From Elusimicrobiota bacterium (GTDB lineage Bacteria; Elusimicrobiota; Elusimicrobia; FEN-1173): a DNA stretch of 64,000 bases. The DNA is taken from the NCBI GenBank assembly GCA_016715645.1, contig JADJZR010000007.1, forward strand, positions 116,221 to 180,220, in the 5' to 3' direction. A program made the position numbers and the translations under genes. Shown here piece after piece: positions 4,054 through 29,369 of the stretch. Position 1 is the stretch's first letter. Every line of letters starts with the position of its first letter. The notes beneath the pieces are model-generated. The model did no database searches, was not told where the DNA came from, and saw only the letters and a list, made by a program, of their open reading frames with translations.

Positions 4054-4062
4054 AGCGGGATT

Positions 4063-4085
4063 AAGATTGTCTTAAGAAGTTGTAA
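4063..4085 (-). promoter_or_regulatory. Conserved upstream element shared with the paralogous operon (copy A)
   Basis: aagattgtcttaagaagttgtaa matches 23497..23519 (aagattcccttaagaacttgtaa) at 20 of 23 positions. It lies about 40 nt upstream of the likely start at 4020 and contains the 6-3-6 palindrome ttaagattgtcttaa (4061-4075). Confidence 0.4.
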
Positions 4086-4105
4086 ATTATTAGTAACAGG
4101 TCAGG

Positions 4106-4972: not shown

Positions 4973-4975
4973 GGA

Positions 4976-5923: not shown

Positions 5924-5951
5924 TTAGAGTGCGCTCCTCTCTGGAAAAACC

Positions 5952-5988
5952 CTTCCGGTCCCCCTTTCGCTGAAAGGGGGACCGGAAG
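5952..5988 (-). terminator. Intra-operon stem-loop with U-tract (attenuator or partial terminator) between GH130 and the permease genes
   Basis: A perfect 16-bp stem, cttccggtcccccttt / aaagggggaccggaag, has a 5-nt loop. On the minus strand it is followed by GGTTTTTCC, then GAGGAG and the ATG of the permease. Confidence 0.6.
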
Positions 5989-5996
5989 CATCAATA

Positions 5997-6923: not shown

Positions 6924-6924
6924 G

Positions 6925-8157
6925 TTATTTTTCTATCCTTTCGTTCATCGCTTTGGCCGCATCGGCCAGAAGTTTTTTGGGATCTTCACCCCGGACGACG
7001 GCCTTTTGAATGGCCTCGACCACAAAACGAGTACTGTCGTTCCACCCCAACACCGAAGGGGGCGCTTTGGCTTCACGGGCCTGGGCCACCAACACCTCTT
7101 TCATTTCAGGCTCTATGGGCAAAGAATCCCAGGCCTTCATGTTGGGCGGCATGTAGATATTGTGGCTTTTGGCGACTTCAACGTAAATAGCCTGTTGAAT
7201 ATCTTCCCGTGAAAGAAACTTGATAAATTCCCACGCATCATTTTTTTTGCCGGACCGCTCAAAGATGCCCATCGCCCGGCCACCGATGAATCCCGTCCGC
7301 TTGCCCGACGGACCCGCCATCAACGGAGCAATGGACCACTTGCCGTTCAATTCCGGCGCATCCGCGGGCAAACTGTTTATCAACCAGTTGCCGGAGATTC
7401 CCAAAGGAAAATCTCCCGATCTCATCCCTTGAGCCACGCCCTGACCGGCTTTAGGAACATCGTATTTTCGATACAAGTCCGCGTAGAACGACAACGCTTT
7501 CTCGGCCTCAGGTTGATCCAAGTTGGAACTGGTTTTGTCCGCGTTATAATAATCTCCCCCCGCCTGCCACAGAAAAGGCGCAAACCCAATCCAATCCATA
7601 GATCCCCAATCCATCAGCAACCCTTGTTTTTTTGGCGATAAACGTTTGAGGGTGGCCACCAGATCGTCCCAGGTGGCTGGAGGCGTGGGAACCAAATCTT
7701 TTCGGTAATACAGGAGCTGAAGGGTCATGTCAAACGGAAGGGAATACACGGCCCCCCGGTATTCGACCGCTTCCCAAATGGACGGAAACGTCCCGGCTTG
7801 CAAGGCGCTGAGTTCGTCAGGAAAAGTCTTTCTTAAATCCACCATTTGACCTTTTGACCCGAACTCCGTTCCCCACGTGAGGCCCATGGTCCCGATATCC
7901 GGCGTCACATCGCCGGCCATGGCGGTTAAGTACTTGCTGTGAGCTTCGGCCCAGGCCATGGATTCGCAACGGACATCGATTCCTGTTGCTGGTGTAAATT
8001 TTTCCTGGGCCAGCCGTTGGAGGATTTGGGCCTCCTCTTCCGAACCCACATGCCAAAACAGGACGTGCTTTTTCTCCGCCGGAACCGTTGTGGAAGAACA
8101 CGCCGCCAACCCGGCCATTAACCCAATAGACAAAACAAAACAATTCATATTTCGCAT
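6925..8157 (-). CDS. Extracellular solute-binding lipoprotein of a sugar ABC transporter
   Basis: 410 aa with lipobox LMAGLAAC. SBP family-1-like composition, and the gene directly precedes GH130 and the two permeases. Confidence 0.9.
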   Translation of the reverse strand: MRNMNCFVLSIGLMAGLAACSSTTVPAEKKHVLFWHVGSEEEAQILQRLAQEKFTPATGIDVRCESMAWAEAHSKYLTAMAGDVTPDIGTMGLTWGTEFGSKGQMVDLRKTFPDELSALQAGTFPSIWEAVEYRGAVYSLPFDMTLQLLYYRKDLVPTPPATWDDLVATLKRLSPKKQGLLMDWGSMDWIGFAPFLWQAGGDYYNADKTSSNLDQPEAEKALSFYADLYRKYDVPKAGQGVAQGMRSGDFPLGISGNWLINSLPADAPELNGKWSIAPLMAGPSGKRTGFIGGRAMGIFERSGKKNDAWEFIKFLSREDIQQAIYVEVAKSHNIYMPPNMKAWDSLPIEPEMKEVLVAQAREAKAPPSVLGWNDSTRFVVEAIQKAVVRGEDPKKLLADAAKAMNERIEK

Positions 8158-10441: not shown

Positions 10442-11145
10442 CTACTTTGCGGGCTTTAAAGGCGCGTTTTCCAAACGAACGTTGTCGATGAAAACCGGCC
10501 CTTCGTAGGGGGGGCCGTTCACGGAAACGCGAACCCCAAGCTTTCGCACATCGCTGATCAATTCCGGAGTCAACCGGGCTTTCCAGCCGGTGCTGTCGGG
10601 AGCCACATTGGCCTGAATGGTCGTCCACGTACCGGGAACAAGTTCCACCGGTTGGCGCATTTCCGTCCACGCCCAATTGTCGCCCACGGTGAGAATAATC
10701 TCCGCTTTCATTCTCTTAGGCGCCTCCGCTGGCACATACACATCCGCCATGAGGTAGGGGAAGGGACTGAAATCCATGTAACTGCTGGAATCCTGTTCGA
10801 TTTCCACATACGCCCCGCTCCACATTTTGGGGGAAATTTCGTGGCCATTTTCAACGCTTTTTTTCCATCCGAAGCGAATTCGCCGCCCACCGCCACTTCC
10901 ACGGACGCATTGTCGGATTTTTCAAACGCCCAGTCGGGGATCCGCCATCCGTCACTGTCCACCTCAAAACTAAAGAGGACCTTCCCATCCTGTTTTTTTG
11001 ATGATTTCTTTTTATCCGCCGATTTTGCCGATTTCGTGGCGGGTTCCTTCTTTTCAGCCGCCGCCTTTTCAGCGGCCCACAACGGAGAAACCGACAACAG
11101 CGCCCCCGACAACAGGACCATCATCGAACGACGAACATGATTCAT
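10442..11145 (-). pseudogene. CBM-like secreted protein split by a one-base frameshift in a homopolymer run
   Basis: ORF 10708..11145 (signal peptide, then VLFSFEVDSDGWRIPDWAF...ALKMATKFPPK) continues sensibly only in the frame of ORF 10442..10825 (MWSGAYVEIEQ...GPVFIDNVRLEN). The junction lies in tttt/ggggg at 10825-10833. Confidence 0.5.
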
Positions 11146-12919: not shown

Positions 12920-15900
12920 TTACGCCGCGATAAAGGACAGCCTCAAGGAATTGACGTCGGTTTCAATGGACGTTCCCGCTTGCGTTAATTTGCCCAACAT
13001 GTTGATGATGTAAACAAGCAGGTTTTCCCTGGCGAATCCCTCCGGCATGTTGTCAAAGCTAAACCGATTCTCATACATAGAAACAATGGCGATGGTTCCG
13101 GAAGTTAAAATCTTGTGGACAGGAGCCAAACTTCCCACAACACCTCCAAAATCGATTCTCCCATCATCGGTCAAATAGTTGCCCTGATGCACAAAGAATG
13201 TTCCCTGCATGGGCCCCCGAGATTCCACTTGTTGAGCTTTTAGAAAACCCTCCAATTCGCTGGGAGTAATGGACGTGTCTCCGCTCATCAAGAAAAGAGT
13301 AACGGTTGCTTTTTCCTCCGCCTCTCTCAGTTCTTTCTTCCACCGATTGATCCCGTCTTCCCCAGCGGCAGGATCCCAACCCACATTTCCATCCTCACCG
13401 CGAACCACAGGAGCCAACATGAATTGGTGTTGGACGTCGTCCACCCGCCCATTTTCATTATTGCGAGCCGCAATGGTTTGGACGGCGGCTTCGCGACTAT
13501 AGAGGCCAAGGGCATGCGAACGGGATTCATCGCTCATCCCCATTTGGTCAGCCAAAACAGCCAGGGCGATCATTTCGTTCCGTTGACGCTCAGCGGAGTA
13601 ATTGCCCGTGGATGTGCGATTGTGCCCATGGAGGCGCGCCAACGTGAAGGCCACGTCGAGAAAAAGCTTTTGCGCTGTTGGCTTGTTTTTAGGAGTGCGC
13701 GCCCACTGTGTAAATTCACCCAATTCGCCATCGGTCCAGTAAGCGTTGGCACGCAAGAAAACGTCGGCCGTTAAAGTGTCAAATTTTTTGGCAGCGCGCG
13801 CGGCGGGCGGCGCCACAGTTCCTTCCCCCGAATAACGGATGAAGCTGGGAAGAGTGTTTGGCGTTTGCACCGGTTCAACCTTCACGCCCTTTTCCCGCCC
13901 AAATTGTTGGACTGTGGCCGCTGGAACCACTTGGTCGGTCACTGAAAGCAACGCCGGCCTTGTCGGGAATAAAGCGGTATTTCGAACTGTTACTTTGTTC
14001 CCTTCGAACGTAATTGAAATGTTTTCCACTCCTAATACTCGGACTTTCTGGCTGTCTGCCCCAATGACGGTAACTCCGGCACCATCTGCTTGGATAGTCA
14101 TTTTAGAATCCCAGACTACCGTGGGGGTTTCCGAGTCTTTGTCGTACGCCTCCTTGACGTTTTTGACACCTTGCGCAAGGGAGGTTTGTATAACGAGCAG
14201 CTGACCCATGTTTGAGAAAACAACCGCAACATCGTCCACCCCTTCCACGGCAATCTCCCTTTCGGTGTCTGCAACCAAGATTGTATCTTTCGATCCCGTT
14301 GTGGACCCGGCCCCTATCCTTCGGTTTCCATGCTCATCCGTTGGGATGGACTTAACTTTTCTCAAAGCATCAAAACTTCCGATATCAATCCACTCGAAAC
14401 TGCCTGGAACCACGATCCCCTGAACCCCTGAATCTTCTGTTTCAAGAGTCATGGGGACCAGGAGAGCATAGTCGACTGAGTTGTGTACTTGTCTATCTTC
14501 CGTCGGATGCTTAATTTTTGACGGAAACGAATTAAAAATATTACGGGCATTTTCCATTTCACCATCTTGAATCGCCTTGACTAGCGCTTCGTACTTTGCG
14601 AAAAGTTCTGGTTGAAATTTCTCCAAGGCCTTTTCCATCGATTCAATGGAGAAAACCAGCATTCCGGAATTCCAATAACGCGTCGCATCTCCAGTTTCTT
14701 GTTCTTGCACCATTTGTCCCGCTAGCTCTGCCGAAGGTTTTTCAGTGAATAGCTTAATTTTGTATCCAACACCAACTTGGGATTGGGTGTTGGCCTCAAT
14801 CGCTCCAAAGGGGGTCCATTCTGCGGGAGGGGCCACTTCTCCAGTCTTCAAATCGATAGGGTTGATCCCAATGGTCACGATGTTGTTCGCTTTAGGGTCC
14901 TGAGCCAAAGCGATGGCCTTATCCATTGTTCGACGAAATTGTTCCGTATCTGGAATGATATGGTCTGCGGTTAACATCGTGAGGGTGGCATTTGGATTCT
15001 GTTTCTTAATATTGGCCATTGCAAATAAAATGGCGGGAAGAGTGTTCCTTCGGCCCGGCTCAATCAGCAGGTTCTCTAAAGGCATATCCGGTAATTGGTT
15101 TTTTAATGGGGTTTCGACATCCGAGCCGGCAACTATAAAGAAATTCTTTACATCGATAAAACTAGAGAAAGCGCCGCTTATTTTTTCTGTCACCCGACGA
15201 AAAGTAGCTTGGATCATTGTGACGCCCATTCCGCTCAACTCGGATAGGGTTTTGTTAAGCGGCCAAAATCGGGAACTCGCTCCACCCGCCAAGGTAATGG
15301 ACGCGACACGCGTCATGTCCGCGGTGGGCTGATCCGGCGGGGCGCGGGTGTCGGTGTCTGCCGCTTGTTTCTTTATTTTGGCGATCCACCATGCTGGAGA
15401 GGATGTAACGTCAGGAAGCCCGAGCAGGAAATCGAATGTGCTCTGAACTCCTTTCCACCAGTCGACGCGATATATTTCTTGACTTAAAACAATTGGCAAC
15501 AGCCACGCGGGAGTTTCGGGGCGGACAGTGATGCTGGCGGTCGTATCGGTTCGGGTTGTTTCAGCAAACCACCGGGCGTCTGTTGGTCTTCCAAATTTAA
15601 CGGTCACAGTTCTTTTGCCGATTTTTAATGTGGCTTCGTTAGAGTTTTGGTCAAAAGTGGGGTCGTAAGAGAACCGCCTGAATCCGTCAGCAAGATCTTT
15701 TATGTTACCCTCTCCTTCAAAAGGCACCTTAAGAGCCCTGTAGGCCATTAACGCAACCCCGGTGTAGGGCAATGCAATCACCGCCAACAGGCCCAGAGAC
15801 CAAATCAGCAACCCTCCAACAAAAGGAATTGCGTTTGCAACGAAAATGAAACCAACCCCCGTTGCGAATACAATGGAGGGTATTCCCACCGCCAACTTTC

Positions 15901-18900
15901 TTGCCGTGGAGTAGGGCTTTGCGATCAAAGGTTTCACACCGGTTTCGGATGCAGAGAGGAACGCCGTTTCTTTTTCTTTGGCGGGCAATTTAGCGAAATC
16001 CACGATTTGTAAGAGGACACCCCTCCCTTGCGTTCGACCCAAAGCTTCCCTTTCCGCTTCGGAAACCCCCTCCGTAGCCTCTCCGCGAGAAAGCCTGCCC
16101 GCCTGGTTAGCCCGAGATTTGCCCCTCTCAGGCGTGGTAAAGAAATATTGCCGAATTTCTTTGTCATTTCCCGATCCACGGAAGTTAACCACTTCTCCAT
16201 CTGCAAGATAACATTTAATTCCAGTTTTAAAGTTCATGCGAACGATGGGAGAATCGGCTAAAACGTTGGCTAACATCCCCTCCAGCAACCTTTTCTTGCC
16301 AACCATTAATTTAGCTTCATCGCTCTCGGCATTCCACACTTTAATTTGGTCTTTATTGTCATCGAGAAGAACAACGGAACCGTCGTTACTGAATTCCACC
16401 CACACAGCCTTGTCCACGATAATCCCATTTGTTGTGGGTGAGAATGTATTCTGCATGATCGCATTAAATTCTTTTTGATGTTCTCCGAATTCATAGCGCA
16501 CAACCGAAGACTCACCGGGTAAAGGGCGAACATCGTTATCGACTATGTCAAGAAGGTCCCTTTTCTTTTCACCGGCCAGGGACAGAACAGCCAGTTCAAC
16601 CACGGTCGCGTCTCTCGTGGGAACAGCCTCAAGATTTCCAATTTTTGTTGCCGTTAAAAATCCTCCGTTCGCTTCCCCACCAACCACCATGTCATATTGC
16701 CCCCCTTCGACGGCTGCGTTCATGGAAGCAATAACATACGGAGACCCCACGTCCGTTAAAGCCACCGTAAAACCTTCGCGCTCAAGGTAAGCCACAACCC
16801 CGGGATTCACTGTGTTTGGCAAGGAAATGTGGGGATTTCTTGCGCCGCTCTTCTCTTTTAAGTAGACCGCCGTCAATGCCACCAGGACATCGCCAGGGAC
16901 AAACCGGAAAGAAATTTGATCCCCGTTTCGGACGACAACCAAAACGAGCGGTCTGTCAGAATCGCCGTCAGTGGAAAAAATGTAGCGCACCGTATCGTTC
17001 AGGTTGAGTTGTCTGAAAATAGCCAAAATCCTGTTCAACTGTTCCTGTGTAATACCTTCGGTATCAACCGGAACAAAATCATCAGTTGCGCCAAAACCAA
17101 CGACCGTGGAGATTCCCTTTTCAACCTTGGAACGATTAAGAAAAACTCGCACAATGTTCTGGACCATTTCACGCCCAACAGCGGAATGTTCGTAGAAGGC
17201 GGCACTGGGAAGACCAGCCACGGGGCCAAAAAATCGACTGTAGCGCCGTTCGGACGTTTCCCTTGCCTCTTTCTGATAGTCCCTGATTTGGTCTGGTCTT
17301 GGTACACGGGTGGGTTTCAACAGACCGTAATCGTCAAATTGAGAATCTTGGAGGGTCCGGCGATACACTAATTCACTTATTTTTTCAGCGGTTAATCTGG
17401 CGATCGTAGCGTTGTCATCTGGAGTTGTTTCTCCGACAGCGCTCCCCCCTTTCATTCCATTAAGCCCCGTTTTGATATGACTTCCAGTCACCATAAAAAA
17501 CAGGCCCTTTGCCTGCATTGCAACGTAGGTCAAAAATGGCGTTGGGATTCTTCCGCAGTAGAAGGGTTGACCTTCCATGTCAAGGATCGCGCGGGCCACG
17601 GCGGTCTCCATCCGTTTGGTGGAGGGCCGATTGTCTCCGCCAAAATAAATTTGGCTGCCGGTTTCACTTCCAAGATGAGAAAAATGGGTGCGCGCTACGG
17701 CGTAGGCGGCAAGATCGGTTAACTCGTGCTCGGGCCCACGCACACCGCTGGTCCCAAATGCGGGATAATTTGGGAAATAAATCATGGCTTGGATTAAATT
17801 CTGGGCCTCCCGACGGCGGAGTTCTGGGATCAACATTTTAAGATTTGTTCCCCGAGGAACCGTTTTTTTACTAAGGTAGGAAGTCACACCTTGGGAAACT
17901 ATCCTCTGTTTGGTTTCCCCCGTGAGTTTAATGTTAGCGTAGGAGGCCAAGAGATCGTATTTATTTTTTTCTTGAGATGAAACTATTTTAACCATAAACA
18001 TATGGATCGACATGGCCTGATCAGCGATACCTCTCATGTGATCTGTTTGTCCCTGGTACATCATGGCATGGAAAAACTGGCGGGACCTTTCTCCCAGGCT
18101 CGACCCTAAATATTCTCGGCTGTATTGGTCGTTTAGCAGGTTGCCAACTTCGGCGACGTACGCCTCGGCCATTTTTGAGTCTTCCAGGGCGAGACTGTTG
18201 AGCGAACCAACCACGTCGTCAACGCGTCCCTCGCGCAGGTCCACCACAAGCTGCCGAATCCCAGGAAGCTCAATTTGACCTAATGCAAAATCAATGCTTA
18301 GGGCGGTTTTAAGGGCACCCTGGACGTCTTCAAGTACCCGTCTCGTTCGAATCAATCGCCCCCTGTATGGATTTCCGATTAGACCGGCACCCGCGACAGC
18401 AGCATCCAAGCTTAATATGGCCCTTCCAAGGCTATCCACTTGGTCTTGGTAGGCTTTTTTCCTGTCGGTCTCCGTGTCGTTACTATGCGCACTAACGAAA
18501 CGACTCAAGGTGACAAAAAGTTTTTGAGAATAATTGGGATCCTTAGCGATCTGGGCAATGTCCAGGACGAACGCATCCGGCTTTCTTGGATCGGGTTTCG
18601 TGGTCTCGCTTGCGGCCAAACGAAGGTCTTGAATCCACGTGGAACCTTGTTGAGGAATCGCTTTGATTAATCGGAGAAGATCCCCGACAAATTCGTTCCA
18701 GTTGTTGTCCATTGAAGGTTCACCCAACGAAGGATTCATTCTTCTGAAAATTTGGGCCCCACGTGATTTTGTTGCGCCAAGAACAATCAATTCGAGTGCC
18801 GCCTGTTCAGGCTTCCCCGTTTTGATAAGGGATAAAATATCTTCAGCCGCCTTAGGTACGTCAACAACTGGTTGGATTAAATCGCTACCTACCATAACGC

Positions 18901-20920
18901 TGTTTATATTATTAAGCGATTTGATTAAATTATTCAATTGGCCGGCAATTTCGCCTGTCCCAAAAACCCCGTTTCTTTGCAAATTATCAGCAAAGGAAAT
19001 AAAGTTGGACCGATATTCAACCCACTCAGCCCGAAGTTCGCCTGATCTCATCCCTATAAGCCTGAGGATATCTGCACGCTCTGCTTGTTCTATACGCCCA
19101 AAATTAGAGGCAATAGCATTAACTTCCTCATCGGTTGTGGCCAACGCCAACCGCACAATAAAAGAATTGGCAATCCTCGTCTTTTCCGATTGCGCCATCC
19201 CACCCTGGGCTACGTAACCACTGTCTACCCTAGGAGGATTGCCAGCATTATCGTAACCCAGGATTTCCCCACTCGAAATTTGTCGACTGGTTTCGCGTAT
19301 GAGCCGAATAGTATAAGGACGGACAAACAACCCTTGAATATCAACAGAAGAAATCCCGGCACTTTCAAGATTATTGATGACCAGTCCGGCAACATCAATA
19401 ACGTCCCCTAAATTGCCGTCCCGTTGCAATTCAAAAAGACCACTAACTAAACGACCTACACCCACAACAAAACCTCTTTGTTCAATTGCCCCGGAATTGA
19501 GCTGTTGTTGGAGCGTTTGAAGTTCCTCAAAGATTTCCTTCGCCTTGTCCTCTTTGGCTTGGTAAGGCATTCCGTCCATGGCCATGGGTTGCACTGGAAC
19601 GGTGGCTCTGAAAAGAGTTGCTTCTCCTTTTGTGGAAACTATTCTGTATCCAATTCCTTTGGGAACCATGACCGTCTGTCCACGAGTCAGAGTTAATTTA
19701 CTCCCATCATCCATTTGGAGCAGTAAAGGCATTTCCGCTTCAAGGACGATTAAAGTTTCAACATCGTGATATGGGGGTTGATTGTGGTTTTGCCCCATTG
19801 CAATATTTATCCGACTCAACTGAAATTCAGGCACGTCTCCGAGTTCGCGGTAAACTGTTTCTGTTTCCGCCACCTGAACCCCATCCCGCACCAACGGAGG
19901 TTCGCCTTGGAAAACCACGGTGTTCATCAGTTCAGGAACGTCCACATGCTTTGGCGTCAAACCACCGCGAAGAACGTTGTTCGAGTTGGCCATGATTTCC
20001 ATTCCGACCCCATCCAGATACGCATGGGGCACACCCGCACTCAAATACATGGCCTGCCCTGGATTCAAACGAATAAGGTTTAACAGATATACCGAAAACA
20101 CCCCCCGATCGTGGTGTCCCTCTGTAGAAAACTCAGCATCCGAACGAAGAACCCAGTATTCGGCTGAGTTTTTGGGAAACGGGGTCTTATTGTTAACCTC
20201 ACGCAACCGCTGGATTAGGGGAGATAAAATGGTGTTTACTTGTTCTTGGGGAAGCCCCATTATATTCCCATAAAGAGTTTTTAAATTCCCTTCAGACGGC
20301 ACTGAAACAAAATCAGTTGCTCCTTGAATGGTCATCAGTTCCGCATTTGCATTGATCGCCCCTGCAATTTCGTTTAACGGCCTGAAACCTCGAAGACCAT
20401 AAAATTCGGTCACCGCAACGATCAGTTCCGGTTTGTGATTGGGATCTTTGTAATTCCGATTTCCAGCCCTAACATCTATCCCTTCTTGATTTTCCCTATC
20501 AAATCCAGCTTGCGCTTGCTCCGCGTTCGGGTGCACCTGGATGGAGAGAGGTTTGCCCGCCGCCAACACCTTAAAGAGGAATGGCAGTTGTCCGTTGTAA
20601 AGTCCCCGAGCGTGGGGAGACATGATCCCCTCTCCGGCCCGCTCGACCAAACGACCCATATCGATCTTTGTGCTTTTAGGCAAAATAGCCGTTGAGGGGA
20701 GATCCGGATGGGCTCCTATCCAGACCTCCGCATATGGGCTATCGCCCGCTGGAATGCCCAACAGATTCGGGATAAACGCATCTTCTCCCCGTTGTCCCCA
20801 AGCGTAATTTTGGACCCCCGTTTCGAGAATTACGGGGTAAGGTCTGGCGGCATATTCCTCTAAAATGCGAGCCTTTTGGCGAAAATTAAAAAATGTTTTC
20901 GATGTCGGAACCTTTCCCAA
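12920..20920 (-). CDS. Giant multidomain protein: type I phosphomannose isomerase + unknown ~600 aa + phosphomannomutase + 2 TM helices + mannose-1-phosphate guanylyltransferase + unknown ~400 aa
   Basis: Uninterrupted 2666 codons. PMI motifs: LSIQVHPN, YKDPNHKPE, VPHAYL, EIMANSNNVLRGGLTPK. Phosphohexomutase motifs: FGTSGVRG, TGSHIK, FSTDGDSDR, GGEANGG, RGSGNDKEIRQYF. TM segment at aa 1676-1728. GMP motifs: ITLAGGASSRFWPL, LIEPGRRNTLPAI, LTADHII, WNSGMLVF, EWIDIGSF. Confidence 0.9.
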   Translation of the reverse strand: MGKVPTSKTFFNFRQKARILEEYAARPYPVILETGVQNYAWGQRGEDAFIPNLLGIPAGDSPYAEVWIGAHPDLPSTAILPKSTKIDMGRLVERAGEGIMSPHARGLYNGQLPFLFKVLAAGKPLSIQVHPNAEQAQAGFDRENQEGIDVRAGNRNYKDPNHKPELIVAVTEFYGLRGFRPLNEIAGAINANAELMTIQGATDFVSVPSEGNLKTLYGNIMGLPQEQVNTILSPLIQRLREVNNKTPFPKNSAEYWVLRSDAEFSTEGHHDRGVFSVYLLNLIRLNPGQAMYLSAGVPHAYLDGVGMEIMANSNNVLRGGLTPKHVDVPELMNTVVFQGEPPLVRDGVQVAETETVYRELGDVPEFQLSRINIAMGQNHNQPPYHDVETLIVLEAEMPLLLQMDDGSKLTLTRGQTVMVPKGIGYRIVSTKGEATLFRATVPVQPMAMDGMPYQAKEDKAKEIFEELQTLQQQLNSGAIEQRGFVVGVGRLVSGLFELQRDGNLGDVIDVAGLVINNLESAGISSVDIQGLFVRPYTIRLIRETSRQISSGEILGYDNAGNPPRVDSGYVAQGGMAQSEKTRIANSFIVRLALATTDEEVNAIASNFGRIEQAERADILRLIGMRSGELRAEWVEYRSNFISFADNLQRNGVFGTGEIAGQLNNLIKSLNNINSVMVGSDLIQPVVDVPKAAEDILSLIKTGKPEQAALELIVLGATKSRGAQIFRRMNPSLGEPSMDNNWNEFVGDLLRLIKAIPQQGSTWIQDLRLAASETTKPDPRKPDAFVLDIAQIAKDPNYSQKLFVTLSRFVSAHSNDTETDRKKAYQDQVDSLGRAILSLDAAVAGAGLIGNPYRGRLIRTRRVLEDVQGALKTALSIDFALGQIELPGIRQLVVDLREGRVDDVVGSLNSLALEDSKMAEAYVAEVGNLLNDQYSREYLGSSLGERSRQFFHAMMYQGQTDHMRGIADQAMSIHMFMVKIVSSQEKNKYDLLASYANIKLTGETKQRIVSQGVTSYLSKKTVPRGTNLKMLIPELRRREAQNLIQAMIYFPNYPAFGTSGVRGPEHELTDLAAYAVARTHFSHLGSETGSQIYFGGDNRPSTKRMETAVARAILDMEGQPFYCGRIPTPFLTYVAMQAKGLFFMVTGSHIKTGLNGMKGGSAVGETTPDDNATIARLTAEKISELVYRRTLQDSQFDDYGLLKPTRVPRPDQIRDYQKEARETSERRYSRFFGPVAGLPSAAFYEHSAVGREMVQNIVRVFLNRSKVEKGISTVVGFGATDDFVPVDTEGITQEQLNRILAIFRQLNLNDTVRYIFSTDGDSDRPLVLVVVRNGDQISFRFVPGDVLVALTAVYLKEKSGARNPHISLPNTVNPGVVAYLEREGFTVALTDVGSPYVIASMNAAVEGGQYDMVVGGEANGGFLTATKIGNLEAVPTRDATVVELAVLSLAGEKKRDLLDIVDNDVRPLPGESSVVRYEFGEHQKEFNAIMQNTFSPTTNGIIVDKAVWVEFSNDGSVVLLDDNKDQIKVWNAESDEAKLMVGKKRLLEGMLANVLADSPIVRMNFKTGIKCYLADGEVVNFRGSGNDKEIRQYFFTTPERGKSRANQAGRLSRGEATEGVSEAEREALGRTQGRGVLLQIVDFAKLPAKEKETAFLSASETGVKPLIAKPYSTARKLAVGIPSIVFATGVGFIFVANAIPFVGGLLIWSLGLLAVIALPYTGVALMAYRALKVPFEGEGNIKDLADGFRRFSYDPTFDQNSNEATLKIGKRTVTVKFGRPTDARWFAETTRTDTTASITVRPETPAWLLPIVLSQEIYRVDWWKGVQSTFDFLLGLPDVTSSPAWWIAKIKKQAADTDTRAPPDQPTADMTRVASITLAGGASSRFWPLNKTLSELSGMGVTMIQATFRRVTEKISGAFSSFIDVKNFFIVAGSDVETPLKNQLPDMPLENLLIEPGRRNTLPAILFAMANIKKQNPNATLTMLTADHIIPDTEQFRRTMDKAIALAQDPKANNIVTIGINPIDLKTGEVAPPAEWTPFGAIEANTQSQVGVGYKIKLFTEKPSAELAGQMVQEQETGDATRYWNSGMLVFSIESMEKALEKFQPELFAKYEALVKAIQDGEMENARNIFNSFPSKIKHPTEDRQVHNSVDYALLVPMTLETEDSGVQGIVVPGSFEWIDIGSFDALRKVKSIPTDEHGNRRIGAGSTTGSKDTILVADTEREIAVEGVDDVAVVFSNMGQLLVIQTSLAQGVKNVKEAYDKDSETPTVVWDSKMTIQADGAGVTVIGADSQKVRVLGVENISITFEGNKVTVRNTALFPTRPALLSVTDQVVPAATVQQFGREKGVKVEPVQTPNTLPSFIRYSGEGTVAPPAARAAKKFDTLTADVFLRANAYWTDGELGEFTQWARTPKNKPTAQKLFLDVAFTLARLHGHNRTSTGNYSAERQRNEMIALAVLADQMGMSDESRSHALGLYSREAAVQTIAARNNENGRVDDVQHQFMLAPVVRGEDGNVGWDPAAGEDGINRWKKELREAEEKATVTLFLMSGDTSITPSELEGFLKAQQVESRGPMQGTFFVHQGNYLTDDGRIDFGGVVGSLAPVHKILTSGTIAIVSMYENRFSFDNMPEGFARENLLVYIINMLGKLTQAGTSIETDVNSLRLSFIAA

Positions 20921-23423
20921 TAGGAAGCAGGGTCGTCACGCCGAAAACCAGGTTTGTTGCCGCGAAAGCCTGCAGGGCCGAACTGTCAACACCCGCCCAT
21001 ATCAATAGGCCCGCTAAAGCCGCAAAAAATATGTTGGCCAGGGGCCCCGCAATAGCCACCCAGGCGTTATTTCGAAACCCCAGGTCATCCGTTTGAGCCC
21101 AAACGCCCTCTCGACCGAACATTAACTTTCCACTCTTGCCACCCAAGAAAGAATAAACCCCCAAATGGCCGGCAACTTCGTGCAACAACACACCAAGCAG
21201 GCCAAAAACTCCCACCGATACTAAAGCGGCATAGGTTAAGCCAAAAATGGAAACAGACGCGGCCACGACACCAAGCCCACCAATCACCAGTTGCCCAGTT
21301 TTCATGAAATTTCGAGTCTGTGTGGCCTCGGTTGAAGGCGGTCTGTTCTGTCCTGAAAACAGGTCGACAACTTTTGCGACGAGCGCCATCGGAGAAAAAT
21401 AACTCGCGATGCCTCTTTCCTCAACATAAATCGCAAAATTACTGACTTTGCCCGAGAAAGCGGCGACCAATTTTCCTAATCTGCCTTTATTTTCGCTCCC
21501 TTCCCCAACGGCGACCGAAACCTGTCTGCCTTCAGTTTTCGTGAAATACACACCTCCATCACTACTCTCAACTTCCGATTGGCTCAAAGCTTCAACTGCG
21601 GGAGTCGTTTGCTTGCCCCCGAGAGCCGCAAGCGTCAGTTTTAAAAGCGCTTTAACGGATTCAGCTGCCCTCTCGTAGCCAGGTGTGGCGATTTTGACAG
21701 AAGCGTTGATCGATGCTTTGGTGGTGATTTTCTCTTGGGTGAACAATTTTTCCAGTGCGGGGCGATCTTTTAGGAAATCCAGGTAATGGGAATCGGAAGA
21801 AACTTCCGTGAGCGTGGGGGTGAACACCACGTAAGACACTTTTCCTTTTTTCAACAAATCGGTCATGCCTTGGGTGTGGAAACCGCCGGCTAACAGAAGG
21901 CCGGTTTTTTGGTTTGTTTCTTTCATTTTAGCTAACAGGTTGTTGACCAACGTTTCGTCACGTTTTAAGGCCGCTTGGCAAAACCCTTCAAAAGAAACCA
22001 GGTCTTTGGGCAAGTCGCCCTTATAGTTGTCCGCCCCCGGGGCTATTTGGTCCATACGGGCGGCCATGTTCATGACGCGGTCCCGTGTCCGTTGATAAAT
22101 TTCCCAGTCTCGGGGCGCCATTTTGAACGCCGTCAGGTTAGCCAGGCTGTGCAGGTCTTGGGCCAGCTCATACACAGCCCGCTCGTCCGCGGACCGGACA
22201 AGGGTCGAGGCCACTTGGTCTTGGATCATGTCCAGCTCTTCCAGCAGAGCTTCCGGTTTGATTTGTTCCGATGCCAACACATACTTTATATAGGACGCCA
22301 TGGCCGGAAACCGGGACAGGGACACACCCCGAGCCTCGCAAATGGTTTGAAGCGAATCGTAATATGCCCCATAGGTCAAGTGGCCGGACTTATAAAGAAG
22401 AGTGCGCTGGACCAGCGCGGAAATTTCTTTTTCCGACAGGGCCTTGGTGAGACTTTCAATCAGTCGGGTTCGTTCTCGTTCCACGTCGGCAAAATCGATG
22501 CCTTTTTCCATGGCCAAACACTTTTTGAACGCCGCCATCGCGGGATACTTTTTCTCAATTTTCACCGACTTTTCCATAAGAGCCACAAAGTCCGGTAAGG
22601 GCATTGAATCGGTGCGGTAACGGGCCTGGGCCTCATCAAAACTCTTTAGCGCGGGAGAATACACCTTCGGTTTCGCCTGGGACAGACGGTATTCCCAGCT
22701 TTTAATCCGGTCTTGCACCCGCTGTTGGATAGGCAGGGACTCTTTAAAGGAGTTGAGATTTTTCAAATAAACGTTGACCTCTTCAATTCCCCAGAGGGTG
22801 GGTTCTTTTTCCATGGTCCAGCCCGCGTGCTCGCCGCCGCCAATCAAATGTTCCTGCAGAAAGAAATCCGCCACATCTCCAATGACCGCTTGGTTGGGGA
22901 AGGTCCGATAAGGAACCAAATCAAACGCTCCCGTCGCTCCCTCCAATCCAACCAGAGACACGGCCCCTGTGTTGACCACTTCGCTGATCAGTCCGGAAAT
23001 GTTCATTTGGGCTTCCCGTTGTTCGTGGACGTCTTGGATGTGGACCACAAGCGGGCGGTCCGAGGCGTTGGGCGCGAAATAGGCGGCGGAAATGCTTCCG
23101 TGAGCCGACGAAATATTGTTGAGCCAAGCGGGCATCAACTTAATTTGTTCGGGCGACAACACCGATCGTGCCGCCAACATATGCGCCTGCCCCCCACCGG
23201 CGGAGCCGGCCATGGCGGAATCAAAGGACCCCACCAAAGGAAGCGCATCAGCCAAAGCGCCCTGGGCCCCAGGGGCCATAGCGTATTGAACGCCCTGGCC
23301 GGTCGAATTTTTTGTCCGAGCGGCGTCGCGCCGTTCTTTCCAAAAATTGGCTTCCACCAACGGTGCGGACACCGTCGAAAACAAAAACGCGATCCCCACG
23401 AACGCGGCAATAAATTTTTTCAT
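20886..23423 (-). CDS. Secreted Tiki/ChaN-like protein (paralogue of 1846..4053) with a C-terminal M50/site-2-protease-like membrane module
   Basis: 845 aa with signal peptide MKKFIAAFVGIAFLFSTVSAPLVEA. Paralogy blocks are as listed for 1846..4053. The C-terminal ~145 aa are hydrophobic and carry LLHEVAGH (HExxH inside a TM helix, nt 21165-21182) and NLVFGVTTLLPIGKGSDIENIF (N..LLP..x.D-type second M50 motif). It overlaps the giant gene start by 35 nt. Confidence 0.8.
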   Translation of the reverse strand: MKKFIAAFVGIAFLFSTVSAPLVEANFWKERRDAARTKNSTGQGVQYAMAPGAQGALADALPLVGSFDSAMAGSAGGGQAHMLAARSVLSPEQIKLMPAWLNNISSAHGSISAAYFAPNASDRPLVVHIQDVHEQREAQMNISGLISEVVNTGAVSLVGLEGATGAFDLVPYRTFPNQAVIGDVADFFLQEHLIGGGEHAGWTMEKEPTLWGIEEVNVYLKNLNSFKESLPIQQRVQDRIKSWEYRLSQAKPKVYSPALKSFDEAQARYRTDSMPLPDFVALMEKSVKIEKKYPAMAAFKKCLAMEKGIDFADVERERTRLIESLTKALSEKEISALVQRTLLYKSGHLTYGAYYDSLQTICEARGVSLSRFPAMASYIKYVLASEQIKPEALLEELDMIQDQVASTLVRSADERAVYELAQDLHSLANLTAFKMAPRDWEIYQRTRDRVMNMAARMDQIAPGADNYKGDLPKDLVSFEGFCQAALKRDETLVNNLLAKMKETNQKTGLLLAGGFHTQGMTDLLKKGKVSYVVFTPTLTEVSSDSHYLDFLKDRPALEKLFTQEKITTKASINASVKIATPGYERAAESVKALLKLTLAALGGKQTTPAVEALSQSEVESSDGGVYFTKTEGRQVSVAVGEGSENKGRLGKLVAAFSGKVSNFAIYVEERGIASYFSPMALVAKVVDLFSGQNRPPSTEATQTRNFMKTGQLVIGGLGVVAASVSIFGLTYAALVSVGVFGLLGVLLHEVAGHLGVYSFLGGKSGKLMFGREGVWAQTDDLGFRNNAWVAIAGPLANIFFAALAGLLIWAGVDSSALQAFAATNLVFGVTTLLPIGKGSDIENIF

Positions 23424-23519: not shown

Positions 23520-23741
23520 CATTTTTGTAAACTTTTTGGGGTCAAGTCTTGAGTTTGTTCCTGTGTTCCGTAACATCAAAAGGAACAATTTGGGAACGCA
23601 AAAGGATGCGCCGTCGGAAGGCCTTTTAAAAAAATGGCTCAGACCGTTGGGCCGTTATGCCCGGCGGGCCCCCTGGGGGTCGGCCACGCGGCCCGGGCGC
23701 AACGTGATTGTGGGAATGCCGGCGTTTGTCCGGCATTCGCT

Positions 23742-25025
23742 TTACAACATCGGCCGTGGGGCCGTTTCGGACGGGAGGGTTTTTCCACCCGTTTTCTCCA
23801 CAATGACGTAATGGACCATCTCGCGGCCCGCGTCATTGAGGATATAAAGCTCCGTGTGGGGGCGCCGGGGGCCCGTGGGGGGCCGGATGGCCACGGTGAT
23901 CTTGCGACGTAACGCCGCCCCCGGCGCCGCGTAGGACCGCCCCTGATACTGAATCCGACCGCAGTTATCCACATACCGTTTGTGATGGATGGCGAAAACC
24001 AGGTCCAGTGTCCCGGTATTCGTGAGGGGCCGCAAATACGTTCGGTTTTCTTGGATAGCACGGGCCCACCGCTTATTCGGCGTTTCTTTGGTTTCGTCGT
24101 GCAAGTGGTATGCGTTGTAGTAGGCCACTTCATCCGTCAGGATCCGGTTCGCTTCGGCCAAGCTTTTGGTTCGGTATCGTTCGCACAACAACGGAATTCG
24201 CCTCTGGAAATAGTCAAACCGCTTCTCGATTTTTCCCTTCGCCTCCGGATACCTCTTCGCCGTGAATTTCACATCCACCTGTTGTGTCCGAAGCGCCCGC
24301 ACAAACTGGGTCTCGATGTCATCGGGATGTTTGAAAATCAGGTGGTTATCCACGTAATACGCCAGCGGGCACCCCACCGTTTCCAACGTCGTGCGCACTT
24401 GCGTCAAATGATCCCATGCCGTCTCCTGCTCCACCAGCAACCACCCCACCACTTTGCGACTGTGATCGTCTTCCGTCATGATCAGATCACTGTGCGCTCC
24501 CGTGTGCGGGAGCCAGACATGGGTTGAACTATCGTGTTGGAACAACATCCCAATCCCGTTCTTTTCAAACCGGATATAGGGTTTGCCCACCTTATCGACG
24601 CCCGGTTCGTAGAGCCCTTGCCCGATCGCCCAACGTCGGATCGTGTTGCGATGGATCCTTTGCCCGTAACGCCGCTGGCATTGCTGCGCCAAAAACGCGA
24701 AGTTGATATGCCCACGGAAAAACGGCGATTCTTCCCGGTAATAGCGGATCTCCTCCTCCACATACGCCCTCACAGCTTGTGACAACGCGTTACGTCCGCT
24801 CCCTTCCCGTCCATACAGCCAATCCGGCGACGGTTCTTGTCCGCGGATCTTTAACCACTTCTGTTTCAACTTATTGACCCGGCTTCGGCCCACATTCAAC
24901 AATTTCCCCGCCATTTCTTCCGTCAATTGCCCGACCGCCACCCGTTGGACCAATTGCCACACCAACCGCCAGCTCATCCGTTTATGAAGCTGTTGTTTGC
25001 CTCCAACGGGCCCCTTACGCGTCAT
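23742..25025 (-). CDS. DDE transposase, integrase-core (rve) type with N-terminal HTH
   Basis: The catalytic-triad context is FQHDSS, YYVDNH and PEAKGKIEKRF. I estimate roughly 50% identity to the ORF at 26265..27575. The track ORF extends to 25130, but alignment with copy 2 favours the start MTRKGP at 25025. Confidence 0.85.
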   Translation of the reverse strand: MTRKGPVGGKQQLHKRMSWRLVWQLVQRVAVGQLTEEMAGKLLNVGRSRVNKLKQKWLKIRGQEPSPDWLYGREGSGRNALSQAVRAYVEEEIRYYREESPFFRGHINFAFLAQQCQRRYGQRIHRNTIRRWAIGQGLYEPGVDKVGKPYIRFEKNGIGMLFQHDSSTHVWLPHTGAHSDLIMTEDDHSRKVVGWLLVEQETAWDHLTQVRTTLETVGCPLAYYVDNHLIFKHPDDIETQFVRALRTQQVDVKFTAKRYPEAKGKIEKRFDYFQRRIPLLCERYRTKSLAEANRILTDEVAYYNAYHLHDETKETPNKRWARAIQENRTYLRPLTNTGTLDLVFAIHHKRYVDNCGRIQYQGRSYAAPGAALRRKITVAIRPPTGPRRPHTELYILNDAGREMVHYVIVEKTGGKTLPSETAPRPML

Positions 25026-25260
25026 GTTTTTCCACCCGGGCCTGTGGCTCCTGCGGCCTTCCCATCGATGGACCTGCCGATCTCTCCTGGTTTGGATACA
25101 AGCGTGACAACACGATCCGCCACGTCTCATCCCACCACCGTCGGCGATCCTCCCAGATCAACTGGTCCACCACCGATGAACAACTTCGCCCTTCATGCCG
25201 CGCTTTTTTACACAACAGATTCCACGTGCACCAGGGCAACTCAATTCGTATCCGTTTCAT
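25015..25260 (-). CDS. Ribbon-helix-helix (CopG-like) small protein of IS copy 1
   Basis: 81 aa, MKRIRIELPWCTWNLLCKKARHEGRSCSSVVDQLIWED. This fits a beta-strand plus two-helix RHH layout and resembles MKRLVVHLADELYDPLEREAHKRGTTLTEMVSTYL of copy 2. It overlaps the transposase start by 11 nt. Confidence 0.5.
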   Translation of the reverse strand: MKRIRIELPWCTWNLLCKKARHEGRSCSSVVDQLIWEDRRRWWDETWRIVLSRLYPNQERSAGPSMGRPQEPQARVEKHDA

Positions 25261-25295
25261 GGGGCCTCCTTTTGCCTCTTCTCAGCCCCATTCTT

Positions 25296-26049: not shown

Positions 26050-26268
26050 CTAAATGGGTTTCGAGCCGCTCGCACCGCCAGGGGAACTTGACGACGGTCG
26101 CGCGTGGTAAGCCTTGCATCTCTCCCAGATATATTCGAAATAGACCCTCGGAAATTCACGCCGCAAATAGGTCGACACCATCTCCGTCAGGGTCGTTCCC
26201 CGCTTGTGAGCCTCTCGTTCCAATGGGTCATATAGCTCGTCAGCCAGGTGGACAACCAGCCGTTTCAT
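26050..26268 (-). CDS. Ribbon-helix-helix (CopG-like) small protein of IS copy 2
   Basis: An internal ATG of track ORF 26050..26583 gives the 72-aa protein MKRLVVHLADELYDPLEREAHKRGTTLTEMVSTYLRREF... The start overlaps the transposase stop. Confidence 0.55.
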   Translation of the reverse strand: MKRLVVHLADELYDPLEREAHKRGTTLTEMVSTYLRREFPRVYFEYIWERCKAYHARPSSSSPGGASGSKPI

Positions 26269-27575
26269 GGCCGCGTCTCCCTCTCCGGGGGCAAAGACCT
26301 CCGACGTGTCTGCGGCACAATAAAGTGCGCCAGCGTGCTCCCCCGCCAAATCACGGAAATCTCCGTGTGCGGCCGCCGTGGCCCCGTCGGCAGGCGCAGG
26401 GCCACCGTCACGGTCTGGCGGATGGGCGCGCCTTTGGGAATTCTCCATGTTTGACCACCGAATTCGATGCTCCCCGTCTTGTCCACCACACGCTCGTAAT
26501 GCAACGAGAAAACAAGATCCATCGGCGTTTTGGCCGGAATATCGTTCAAATAGGCCCGCCCGTCCTCCAAGGCTTTCTTCCATCGTTTATCCGGAATTTC
26601 TCCCGTCTCCGCATGCGGGTGTTTCTCGTTGTAGAACGCCACCTCCTCACGCAAGAGCTCGTTGGCTTTCGCCAGAGTCGTGATCTTGTATCGTTCGCAC
26701 AAATACGGAACTCTCGACTGAAAATACCCAAACCGTTTTTCAATTTTTCCCTTCGATTCTGGACGGCGGGGCCCCGCCAATTTCAACGTGATGTCCAAAC
26801 TCTTCAGTGCCCGCGAAAACTGCGTGTGACCTTCTGTCGACGGGGCAAAGATGCTGTGGTTGTCGGTGTAATAGGCCAACGGACATCCAAAGAGCTCCAC
26901 CGTCGATCGCACAGTTTGCAGGTGGTTCCAGGACGTGTCCTGCTCCACCAGAATCGCGCCCACTACCTTGCGACTGTGGTCGTCTTCCGTCATGATCAGC
27001 ACATCGTTTCGTTGGCGCGCCGGAACCCACCCGTGAATGGAACTGTCGTGCTGGAACAGCATCCCGATTCCGCCCATCTCGAAGAGAATGAACGGTTTTC
27101 GACACGTGTCCACCGCAGGGTCGTAATACCCCTGCGCGATCGCCCACCGCCTCAGCGTATCCCGCTGAAACCGCTTGCCAAACCGTTGTTCGCACTGTTG
27201 CGCCAGAAACGCAAAGTTGTAATGCCCACGAAACGGCTTCGGCGCTTCTGTCCGAATGTAGTTCAACTCCTCTTCCAAATACCCGCGCACCTCCGATGGT
27301 AACCGCCCCGCCCCGGTTTCTGGGCGTTGATACAACCACCCTTCCCTCGCACCCTCCCGCCACGTTTTGAGCCATCGGTCCTTCAGCACATACAACCGCG
27401 TTCGGCTGATCCCCAACCATTCCATCGCTTTGGCCGGCGGCATTTTCCTCAGTACGAACTGCTCCACGATGTTCCATACCGTCCGCCAGCTCATTCGCCG
27501 ATGCAACTGGTCCCGACTCCGATGGGTTTTCACTCCCTTGCGTATCCGTTTCTCGTCCATGGGCCCCTCCTTCAT
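26265..27575 (-). CDS. DDE transposase, integrase-core (rve) type with N-terminal HTH
   Basis: 436 aa with FQHDSS, YYTDNH and PESKGKIEKRF. Paralogue of 23742..25025. Confidence 0.85.
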   Translation of the reverse strand: MKEGPMDEKRIRKGVKTHRSRDQLHRRMSWRTVWNIVEQFVLRKMPPAKAMEWLGISRTRLYVLKDRWLKTWREGAREGWLYQRPETGAGRLPSEVRGYLEEELNYIRTEAPKPFRGHYNFAFLAQQCEQRFGKRFQRDTLRRWAIAQGYYDPAVDTCRKPFILFEMGGIGMLFQHDSSIHGWVPARQRNDVLIMTEDDHSRKVVGAILVEQDTSWNHLQTVRSTVELFGCPLAYYTDNHSIFAPSTEGHTQFSRALKSLDITLKLAGPRRPESKGKIEKRFGYFQSRVPYLCERYKITTLAKANELLREEVAFYNEKHPHAETGEIPDKRWKKALEDGRAYLNDIPAKTPMDLVFSLHYERVVDKTGSIEFGGQTWRIPKGAPIRQTVTVALRLPTGPRRPHTEISVIWRGSTLAHFIVPQTRRRSLPPERETRP

Positions 27576-28380: not shown

Positions 28381-28677
28381 ATGGCCAACTCAATCAAAAA
28401 AAATCTGATCCCTTTTGCCGCGAAATACGTCTGGTGGAAATCTCCCGACGAAGCGATTGAATACCCAGAACGCGTGGTGGCCTATGTGCTGAATTCAGGG
28501 ACTTTTGAAGATGTTCAAAAAATTGTCGGCCTTATGGGCGAAGACTACTTGAGAGGGGTAGTGGAACGCGCGGAGGTTGGGTGGTTTAATGAAAGATCGT
28601 GGCACTACTGGCACTATCGGCTGGGGATGGCCAAACCAAACGAAGTCCCCGAAATGAAACGGCGGAGAGTCGCTTGA
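28381..28677 (+). CDS. Small protein, putative antitoxin partner of the AbiEii-type nucleotidyltransferase
   Basis: 98 aa. TATAAT at 28337-28342 and GGGGGGAG before the ATG. Its stop overlaps the TTG start of the next gene (TTGA at 28674-28677). The W-rich pattern YVWWKSPDEAIEYPERVV...GTFEDV...GEDYL is one I recall from small ORFs preceding AbiEii genes. Confidence 0.55.
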   Translation: MANSIKKNLIPFAAKYVWWKSPDEAIEYPERVVAYVLNSGTFEDVQKIVGLMGEDYLRGVVERAEVGWFNERSWHYWHYRLGMAKPNEVPEMKRRRVA

Positions 28678-29369
28678 TAAAAAGATTCAAACCTATTAAA
28701 CGCGTATTGCCGAAAGCCCAGTTGAGCCTCTGGCCTCAATTAAAACCCACAACGACTCTTGGCCTTGTGTTGTATGGCGGTACAGCCATCGCCCTTCGAC
28801 TTGGACATCGCTCGTCGGTTGATTTCGATTTCTTCACGAGCGCCCCTTTGGATAAAAAAGCGATTCGTGACCGCCTCCCAATAGTGAACCGGGGCGAAGT
28901 GACCCAAGAAGATCCAAACACGTTAAGCCTCCTTACTCATCCGGTTGGCCTCGAAAGCTCGAACGTAAAATTATCTTTTTTTGGCGGGCTTCGTCTGGGA
29001 CGCGTGGGAACACCGGAGAGAACGCAAGATGAGGTTCTCGATGTGGCCTCCTTGGACGACTTAATGGCAACGAAGTTGGTCGTTATTATGAACCGCATCG
29101 AATCAAAAGATTACCAGGACATTGCGGCCATGATTAGCGCCGGTGTGCGGTTGGATAAGGGGCTCGCGACCGCGACCTTAATGCACCCCCACGCTTTTCA
29201 ACCTCAAGAAAGCCTACGCGCGTTGACTTTTTTTGAGGGGGGAGATTTGAAAAAACTCTCTCGGTCCGAAAAAACGACCCTTATCGAAGCATCACGGAGT
29301 GTTCGAGACCTCCCACCCCTCCCACCCCTGACCCCCTATTTGGGGACTGAACCTCTTCTCTCTGAATAA
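28674..29369 (+). CDS. Nucleotidyltransferase AbiEii/AbiGii (DUF1814) toxin family protein
   Basis: LVLYGGTAIALRLGHRSSVDFDFFT is the family-typical GGTAL..R.S.D.DFF block. The true start is probably TTG 28674 (LIKRFKPIK) rather than the out-of-context ATG at 28599. Confidence 0.75.
   Translation: MIKRFKPIKRVLPKAQLSLWPQLKPTTTLGLVLYGGTAIALRLGHRSSVDFDFFTSAPLDKKAIRDRLPIVNRGEVTQEDPNTLSLLTHPVGLESSNVKLSFFGGLRLGRVGTPERTQDEVLDVASLDDLMATKLVVIMNRIESKDYQDIAAMISAGVRLDKGLATATLMHPHAFQPQESLRALTFFEGGDLKKLSRSEKTTLIEASRSVRDLPPLPPLTPYLGTEPLLSE

Follow-up and report, generated by a model that had tools for sequence, protein, structure and literature searches.

A membrane module of site-2-protease descent within a probable giant membrane protein of Elusimicrobiota

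Two overlapping open reading frames (ORFs) on the minus strand of a 64,000-nucleotide (nt) stretch of an Elusimicrobiota genome (GenBank assembly GCA_016715645.1, contig JADJZR010000007.1, positions 116,221 to 180,220; hereafter the window) raise two questions: whether they are two genes or one, and whether the protease-like membrane tail of the first still works as a protease. The upstream ORF (20886..23423) encodes 845 amino acids (aa) from an ATG at 23423 that is preceded, at 6 nt, by a strong Shine-Dalgarno sequence, AAGGAG; the downstream giant ORF (12920..20920) encodes 2,666 aa. The original prediction, made from the sequence of the window, held that the first ORF is a secreted Tiki/ChaN-like protein ending in a minimal M50, or site-2 protease (S2P), membrane module. 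It was proposed to be translationally linked to the giant gene and possibly to process or regulate its product. The features on which that prediction was built are all present in the translation: a signal peptide, the motif strings LVVHIQDVHEQREAQ, LVGLEGATG and LLAGGFHTQG, a hydrophobic tail containing HEVAGH (21165-21182), and the C-terminal end NLVFGVTTLLPIGKGSDIENIF. The signal peptide is Sec-like and occupies aa 1-25 (MKKFIAAFVGIAFLFSTVSAPLVEA; 23349..23423), and a hydropathy scan places its hydrophobic segment at aa 3-25 and the hydrophobic tail at aa 709-817, with a weaker helix continuing to 832. We find that the 845-aa ORF is likely to be the N-terminal quarter of a single multidomain membrane protein of about 3,500 aa, found in a small clade of Elusimicrobiota, and that its tail is related to the M50 core, with altered motifs.

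The orthologues show the two ORFs fused into one polypeptide. A profile of the membrane tail returned P0005 (3,571 aa) and P0006 (3,165 aa), which carry the tail at residues 628-771 and 740-882, respectively, and run uninterrupted from ...LLPIGKGSDIENIF or ...LVPFGRGSDIENFF into ...AAKPYPVVLQTGVQNYAWG..., the phosphomannose isomerase (PMI) N-terminus of the giant ORF in the window. A scan of reference genomes added L004 (contig k141_154696 of an Elusimicrobiota metagenome-assembled genome, MAG), where one intact ORF of 3,497 aa begins with the same N-terminus and reads ...SDIENFFNFRQRARILDEY... across the junction; L003 is likewise labelled Elusimicrobia. In two Elusimicrobiota MAGs and one metagenome contig, in proteins of 3165-3571 aa, ...LLPIGKGSDIEN(I/F)F thus continues directly into the PMI domain. 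Altogether, the profile search and the genome scan yielded only five sequences with the fused arrangement. Exact-pattern scans of metagenome contigs for junction variants gave no match. P0002, a further candidate homologue, was rejected as a chimeric contig in which a fragment of the exported domain is joined to GatB.

Comparison of the junction DNA with the relatives places the difference at a single base. Relative to L002, L003 and L004, the window carries exactly one extra base, which falls inside ACATTTTTTAA (20886-20896), in the interval from GAAAAC to the conserved sequence that follows downstream. The break site reads AAC ATT TTT TAA (20886..20897), with a run of six T at 20888-20893 and the TAA stop at 20886-20888. 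When one T is removed from this run, an ORF of 3,500 aa with zero internal stops results, and the repaired reading, ...SDIENIF-NFRQKARILEEY..., matches P0006 (ENFFSFRQKA) and L004 (ENFFNFRQRA) in length. Together with the orthologues, the repaired frame defines a single coding sequence at 12920..23423 on the minus strand, with one +1 frame break. The break accounts for the apparent stop, the 35-nt overlap (20886-20920) and the TTG start seen in the window. The overlap has the length given in the original prediction, but the ATG assigned there to the giant gene is wrong, the sole upstream in-frame start being the TTG at 20920.

Could the window nevertheless hold two real genes, a secreted and membrane-bound 845-aa S2P-like protein translationally coupled to a 2,666-aa enzyme that it processes or regulates? 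Taken as given, the DNA reads this way: a stop codon occupies 20886-20888, an in-frame TTG lies 35 nt before it, each half is an uninterrupted ORF, and L001, which encodes a homologue with 64% identity (P0001), also has two called genes. The junction is, however, continuous coding sequence in L002, L003 and L004; the TTG has no Shine-Dalgarno sequence, and there is no alternative start before the PMI core; and the break is a one-base difference in run length, as are three other breaks between these assemblies. L001 itself argues against separate genes, since its upstream ORF stays in frame through the junction into the PMI N-terminus (…PVLLKGIPNKMAWGRG), and its own break lies elsewhere: at 4690-4840 of L001, some 20 codons are lost, including the AEVWIGAHP segment, and the frame changes 45 codons past the junction, a different break in the same gene. 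We therefore consider two genes improbable, and the separate protein acting on the giant enzyme in trans gives way to one polypeptide across the junction.

How the break arose bears on whether the gene is intact in this organism. The window and its closest relative, L002, differ by four frame-breaking changes, all of them in homopolymer runs; the three besides the junction are single-base length differences in runs of at least 5 bases, with genes broken in both assemblies. In the window, a run of five C at about 10829-10833 (minus strand), against six in L002, splits a 234-aa gene into ORFs 10708..11145 and 10442..10825; this gene is intact in L002, and in L003 it encodes 226 aa with a weak match to a mannan-binding domain. 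In L002, two genes are split, at G7 versus G6 and at G7 versus TG5. Since the breaks all lie in homopolymers and affect both assemblies, an assembly error is the most likely source of the split, a reading that the sequence comparison makes fairly probable. Weighing against it is a real and recent frameshift, leaving a split gene or a pseudogene, which we hold to be distinctly less probable though far from negligible; that L001 is also frame-broken, 45 codons further on and with a deletion of about 20 aa, counts on the same side.

Two further accounts of the break fare worse. If the gene were a decaying pseudogene that had lost its function through a real frameshift, the frame break would be expected, and a probable mobile insertion of about 6 kb, absent from L002, with two integrase ORFs of the rve type and a gene for an AbiEii toxin, does lie immediately upstream. 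Yet the break is the only one in 10.5 kb, no stops occur across the 8-kb downstream part, and comparison with L004 gives strong signatures of selection, so that decay seems quite unlikely. Programmed +1 ribosomal frameshifting, in which the ribosome would slip on AUU UUU UAA as the P-site UUU re-pairs one base on with the stop in the A site, as in prfB, appears more remote still. The site AAC ATT TTT TAA T would permit perfect re-pairing of tRNA-Phe in the +1 frame, so that the slippery codon and stop of the prfB type are both present, and the product, ...ENIF-NFRQKA..., equals the orthologues exactly in length. Against such a mechanism, the site lacks a Shine-Dalgarno-like stimulator some 3 nt before it, three of four orthologues are in frame at the site, so the shift is not conserved, and the other homopolymer indels in the same assemblies favour error. 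On sequence grounds we regard programmed frameshifting as very improbable.

Taking the 845-aa ORF as the likely N-terminal part of one long protein, we turn to its membrane tail, a truncated M50/S2P-like core at aa 706-845 (20889..21308). It comprises a helix at 716-759, a beta-hairpin at 766-777, helices at 783-809 and 815-832, and the loop PIGKGSD. In an hmmsearch of the tail profile against 1.8 billion proteins, the matches besides orthologues were 19 proteins of 130-300 aa (E = 2e-6 to 1e-3), every one of which belongs to Pfam PF02163 (Peptidase_M50). Comparison of the tail with M50 by hhalign gave 99.45% probability (E = 4e-22), in an alignment that stops at LLPIGK. The AlphaFold2 (AF2) model of the module has pLDDT >90 over the core and a continuous 44-residue helix with HEVAGH near its end, and the fold corresponds to the published catalytic core of S2Ps, with its three segments (PMC10202637). 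The top seven Foldseek matches of this model in the PDB are all SpoIVFB (8vjl), MjS2P of M. jannaschii (3b4r) or RseP (7w6x/7w6y), with probabilities reaching 1.00; since M50 proteins were part of the alignment from which AF2 built the model, the structural match is partly circular. This circularity tells against M50 descent, as do the lack of any Pfam M50 match to the window module at E <= 10 and the score of P0001, which reaches PF02163 only at E = 3.6 (7.3 bits against a cutoff of 27.2). Pfam and NCBIfam scans of the whole ORF and of the tail alone likewise gave no M50 match for the window, and phmmer of the tail against PDB sequences returned low-complexity noise only. Taken together, the profile comparisons and the structure model show that the predicted module descends from an M50 core, and the homology claimed in the original prediction holds for the tail taken alone. 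The module is also functionally constrained: its dN/dS against L004 is 0.08, compared with 0.06 for the exported domain and 0.44 for the linker between them, and it is under strong purifying selection.

Descent notwithstanding, the module falls outside the M50 motif definition. The zinc motif is HExxGH in all five orthologues (HEILGH, HELGGH or HEVAGH), versus HExGH in all 19 aligned M50 proteins; HEVAGH (H748, E749, H753) is six residues, H-E-x-x-x-H, one longer than the HExxH that had been read there, and nonetheless lies within the predicted long membrane helix. In the alignment with the 19 proteins, both histidines and the glutamate are invariant, and so are the Pro of LLP and, within AGPxxN, the Gly and Asn. 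In the middle-helix motif, AGPLAN (aa 792-797; 21033..21050), G793 is invariant and N797 nearly so. The third motif, TLLPIGKGSD (aa 831-840; 20904..20933), corresponds in degenerate form to NLLPxxxLDG: its P834 is invariant, the fused family has Thr or Ala ahead of LLP where M50 has a nearly invariant Asn, and in the window G-S-D stands at the L-D-G positions, with D840 one position late and the Gly absent. The N..LLP....D(G) motif of the original prediction is therefore not present in that form. All five orthologues keep D840, which lies past the end of the profile alignment and, in the AF2 model, within a low-confidence loop. What the homologues keep is thus HExxGH and D840, in all five, rather than the canonical HExxH and DG hallmarks. 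The M50-like part of the fused family ends a few residues past G-S-D, whereas M50 proteins add two more helices.

Set beside known M50 proteins (the small SpoIVFB-like members, MjS2P, 3B4R, and RseP), the module shares the three-helix core, made up of the metal-motif helix, the reentrant beta-hairpin, the AGPxxN helix and the LLP helix. It differs in having HExxGH and not HExxH, TLLP and not NLLP, and an Asp one position late with no Gly after it. It differs further in that only soluble enzyme follows its third core helix, with no PDZ or CBS domain, and in sitting in the middle of a protein of some 3,500 aa, where Pfam PF02163 misses it.

Whether the module is still an active intramembrane metalloprotease, cutting in cis or on a partner and, for instance, freeing a regulator or the array of cytoplasmic enzymes once the exported Tiki-like hydrolase has made a cut or given a signal, has to be judged from these features. 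All five orthologues conserve H748, E749, H753, N797, P834 and D840, the dN/dS of the module is far below that of the linker, and both the beta-hairpin and AGPxxN, the substrate-handling elements of S2Ps, are retained. In family M49, moreover, HEXXGH and HEXXH forms are both zinc-binding and active (PMC5805324, PMC9820243), and on this precedent the longer motif is in itself compatible with catalysis. Against activity stand the broken HExxH spacing, the loss of the NLLP Asn, the displacement of the Asp into a loop modelled with low confidence, the absence of the helices found after LDG in each of the 19 M50 relatives, and the lack of a candidate substrate. Because H, E, H, N and D are conserved inside the bilayer, the sequence suggests that the module still binds metal. 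That it still cleaves something is possible, with the balance tilting slightly against it, and we regard the active protease outlined above as doubtful.

The orientation of the module determines the side on which the enzymes that follow it would lie. The module is predicted to make three passes (outside, in, out, in), with the PMI, phosphomannomutase/phosphoglucomutase (PMM) and mannose-1-phosphate guanylyltransferase-like (GMP) domains in the cytoplasm, because AF2 models a single long first helix, the core is oriented as in RseP (outside-inside-outside-inside), the positive-inside count favours it and the substrates are cytoplasmic. Counted on the translation, the loops of a three-pass arrangement hold 9 Lys and Arg inside and 3 outside, compared with 0 inside and 12 outside for four passes, and the enzymes after the module require sugar phosphates and GTP. 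A four-helix tail, in which the first segment is a hairpin, conflicts with this count, with the single helix of the model and with the need for cytoplasmic substrates, and was rejected. As a point on the other side, the 49-aa hydrophobic stretch might fold as a hairpin of two helices and not as one helix, and the enzymes would then lie outside the cell.

The part that would be displayed outside is an alpha/beta domain at aa 87-560 (21744..23165; pLDDT 93.6, dN/dS 0.06 as above), modelled by AF2 as a beta-alpha-beta core interrupted by a helical insertion of about 255 aa. A profile of aa ~87-560 retrieved 33 proteins, all hypothetical and mostly of 500-830 aa. No Pfam model describes this family of about 35 members, and none of those retrieved carries a Pfam domain except P0002 (PF02934). 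Members with a source name are labelled Omnitrophota/Omnitrophica or Elusimicrobia. An N-terminal hydrophobic segment was present in 23 of the 34 members scanned and absent from the others, some of which are partial sequences; many stand-alone members likewise begin with signal-like segments, and the M50-like tail was absent from all those scanned. Across the 33 sequences, D131, H133, Q139, E161, R488, G513, G514 and H516 are invariant (DxH...E...R...GGxH).

Is this domain related to Tiki and ChaN, as the original prediction proposed? The relationship is plausible, with a suggestive motif pattern, sub-threshold ChaN matches and weak structural ones, and no comparison was significant. Matches to PF04187 (ChaN) occurred in 5 of the 33 members, always on the R...GGxH segment (best E = 2e-4); the best score, 22.9 bits against a cutoff of 27.7 (E = 1e-4), came from the core of a paralogue within the window, and PF01963 matched one member at E = 0.03. 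When ten members without the helical insert were scanned against Pfam, the ChaN match did not extend past R...GGxH. The Tiki superfamily site has two His and two Glu, and in RRSP these are E3900, H3902, E3930 and H4030 (PMC6254334). The spacing of 28 from H133 to E161 is that of RRSP, an equivalence by pattern and not by significant alignment. Foldseek of the whole domain model found the erythromycin-esterase-family structures 2rad, 2qgm and 6xcs at E = 0.5-2.7 (TM about 0.2), with nothing at E < 0.1 and unrelated long-helix proteins dominating, and profile and single-sequence searches of PDB sequences gave nothing relevant. Comparison by hhalign with a TraB alignment built from relatives of E. 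coli YbaP paired LEGA and R..GxxH, at 0.3% probability and with an alignment of low diversity (Neff 2.3). No significant profile-level similarity to the Tiki/ChaN/TraB/erythromycin-esterase superfamily was thus obtained. With the Tiki/TraB-PrgY-GumN/ChaN/erythromycin-esterase proteins, the domain appears, by pattern and model, to share an alpha/beta core, an invariant (D/E)-x-H, a Glu at +28, an Arg and GxxH; like erythromycin esterases it has a large helical insertion, and like ChaN and Tiki it is exported. It is unlike the superfamily in having Asp for Glu in the first motif and in reaching no curated threshold. The motifs are suggestive of a weak Tiki/ChaN/erythromycin-esterase likeness.

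Between the exported domain and the module lies a variable linker (aa 561-705; 21309..21743), which shares 65% identity with L004, compared with 96% in its flanks, and is modelled by AF2 with low confidence. The paralogue of the exported DxH...GGxH domain, a 735-aa protein (1846..4053, minus strand) at the far end of the mannan locus described below, shows 27-29% identity and a signal-like N-terminus; its counterpart in L002 extends beyond 1,296 aa and has a break of its own, in a G7 run.

Past the last membrane helix, the protein is predicted to be an array of mannose-phosphate enzymes. A type I PMI domain (19646..20827; PF20511 E = 7e-31, TIGR00218 E = 4e-59) begins about 25 aa after that helix and is followed by about 600 aa of unassigned sequence, PMM domains (16460..17761; PF02878 E = 6e-13, PF02880 E = 7e-10), a 53-aa hydrophobic stretch, a GMP-like nucleotidyltransferase domain (14117..15301; PF00483 E = 7e-15, TIGR01479 E = 1.4e-41) and about 400 aa of further unassigned sequence. 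The hydrophobic stretch (aa 2509-2561 of the fusion; 15740..15898) was found by the hydropathy scan, has an equivalent in P0005 and is probably a two-helix membrane hairpin. Matches to PF20511 (107.7 bits), PF02878 (49.2), PF02880 (39.4), PF00483 (55.7) and TIGR00218 (200.5) lie above their cutoffs; that to TIGR01479 (142.8 bits) is under the equivalog cutoff of 373. The same three activities are found in the bifunctional PMI-GMP enzymes (TIGR01479 type) and separate PMM of GDP-mannose synthesis. Here, unlike there, all three would sit in one chain, with about 1,000 aa of unassigned sequence and a hairpin between them, tethered to an exported domain. Giant Omnitrophota proteins, the Archaeovorins, also embed phosphoglucomutase/phosphomannomutase-type and isomerase domains, with uncertain sidedness, and no M50 domain is mentioned in the preprint describing them (bioRxiv 10.1101/2023.11.21.568195). 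Both are thus very long proteins of related candidate phyla with sugar-phosphate enzyme domains; the protein of the window is far shorter (3.5 kaa) and differs in its Tiki-like and M50-like front end and its place in a mannan-utilisation locus.

The giant gene is a mosaic. Its ends share 80-97% protein identity with L004 and P0005, while the ~1,850 aa in the centre (fusion aa ~1290-3150; 13960-19510 of the window, minus strand) share 20-40% and give no blastn match. This divergent centre spans the region between PMI and PMM, the PMM domains, the membrane hairpin and the guanylyltransferase, and has a GC content of 0.48-0.49, against at least 0.53 in the flanks. L004 and P0005 share a block at 1600-2700 and differ again at 2700-3150. 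On these sequence comparisons, the centre looks like a set of divergent internal cassettes exchanged between close relatives.

On its predicted gene content, the locus is a beta-mannan utilisation cluster. Downstream of the giant gene, and conserved in L002 and L003, are a GH113 enzyme with an F5/8-type-C domain, a mannan-binding-like protein, a solute-binding protein, a GH130 phosphorylase and two ABC permeases. What ties the giant protein to mannan catabolism is this gene neighbourhood and nothing further, which weighs against the functional part of our reading, and in two Omnitrophota genomes the neighbourhood of the exported domain is unrelated. In the genome of L003, a stand-alone paralogue of the exported domain, P0031 (L007, GCA_016714745.1, JADKCG010000025.1, 2747-15914; the same MAG as P0006), adjoins a 940-aa GH113 protein with mannan-binding domains and lies upstream of unannotated proteins of 1,126, 499 and >4,538 aa. 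Immediately upstream of the gene in the window, a stretch of about 6 kb (~23540-29580) that is missing from L002 carries two ORFs resembling rve-type integrases or transposases (23742..25130 and 26265..27575), as well as a gene for an AbiEii toxin (28599..29369), and is probably a mobile insertion. In L004, an ORF of 2,395 aa with no Pfam match (503..7690) stands directly upstream of the intact orthologue.

GH130 enzymes release mannose-1-phosphate from beta-mannosides. This suggests how the parts of the giant protein may work together. The chain would run from the Sec signal peptide through an exported, hydrolase-like domain of about 470 aa, the variable linker and the three-pass M50-derived module to the cytoplasmic enzymes, and the repurposed S2P core may serve mainly to connect the exported hydrolase or sensor domain to these enzymes. 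Mannose-1-phosphate released by the neighbouring GH130 enzyme from imported beta-mannosides could be taken by PMM and PMI to fructose-6-phosphate and glycolysis, and the transferase domain could take it to GDP-mannose. We infer this sidedness, coupling role and pathway from the topology model, the domain assignments and the conserved locus. A bolder version, in which the single chain performs regulated intramembrane proteolysis on itself or a partner through a functional HExxGH site, releasing or switching the cytoplasmic enzymes upon encountering extracellular mannan, strikes us as a long shot. If true, such self-contained regulated proteolysis would be a new use of S2P chemistry and would provide the first M50 protein whose zinc motif spans six residues.

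Site-2 proteases are familiar as signalling proteases that stand alone. Both the enzymes and the M50 core described here belong to known kinds; new are the HExxGH variant, the truncation to nothing more than three core helices, and the position of this core within a giant metabolic protein, where it is under strong selection. For annotation, the "overlapping genes" of the window are a trap that would arise from a one-base homopolymer difference. For the biology of these bacteria, the protein offers a natural test case of whether an M50 core with HExxGH can work, or may serve as a non-proteolytic transmembrane coupler, and of why sugar-phosphate enzymes come to be fused into giant membrane proteins in bacteria of candidate phyla.

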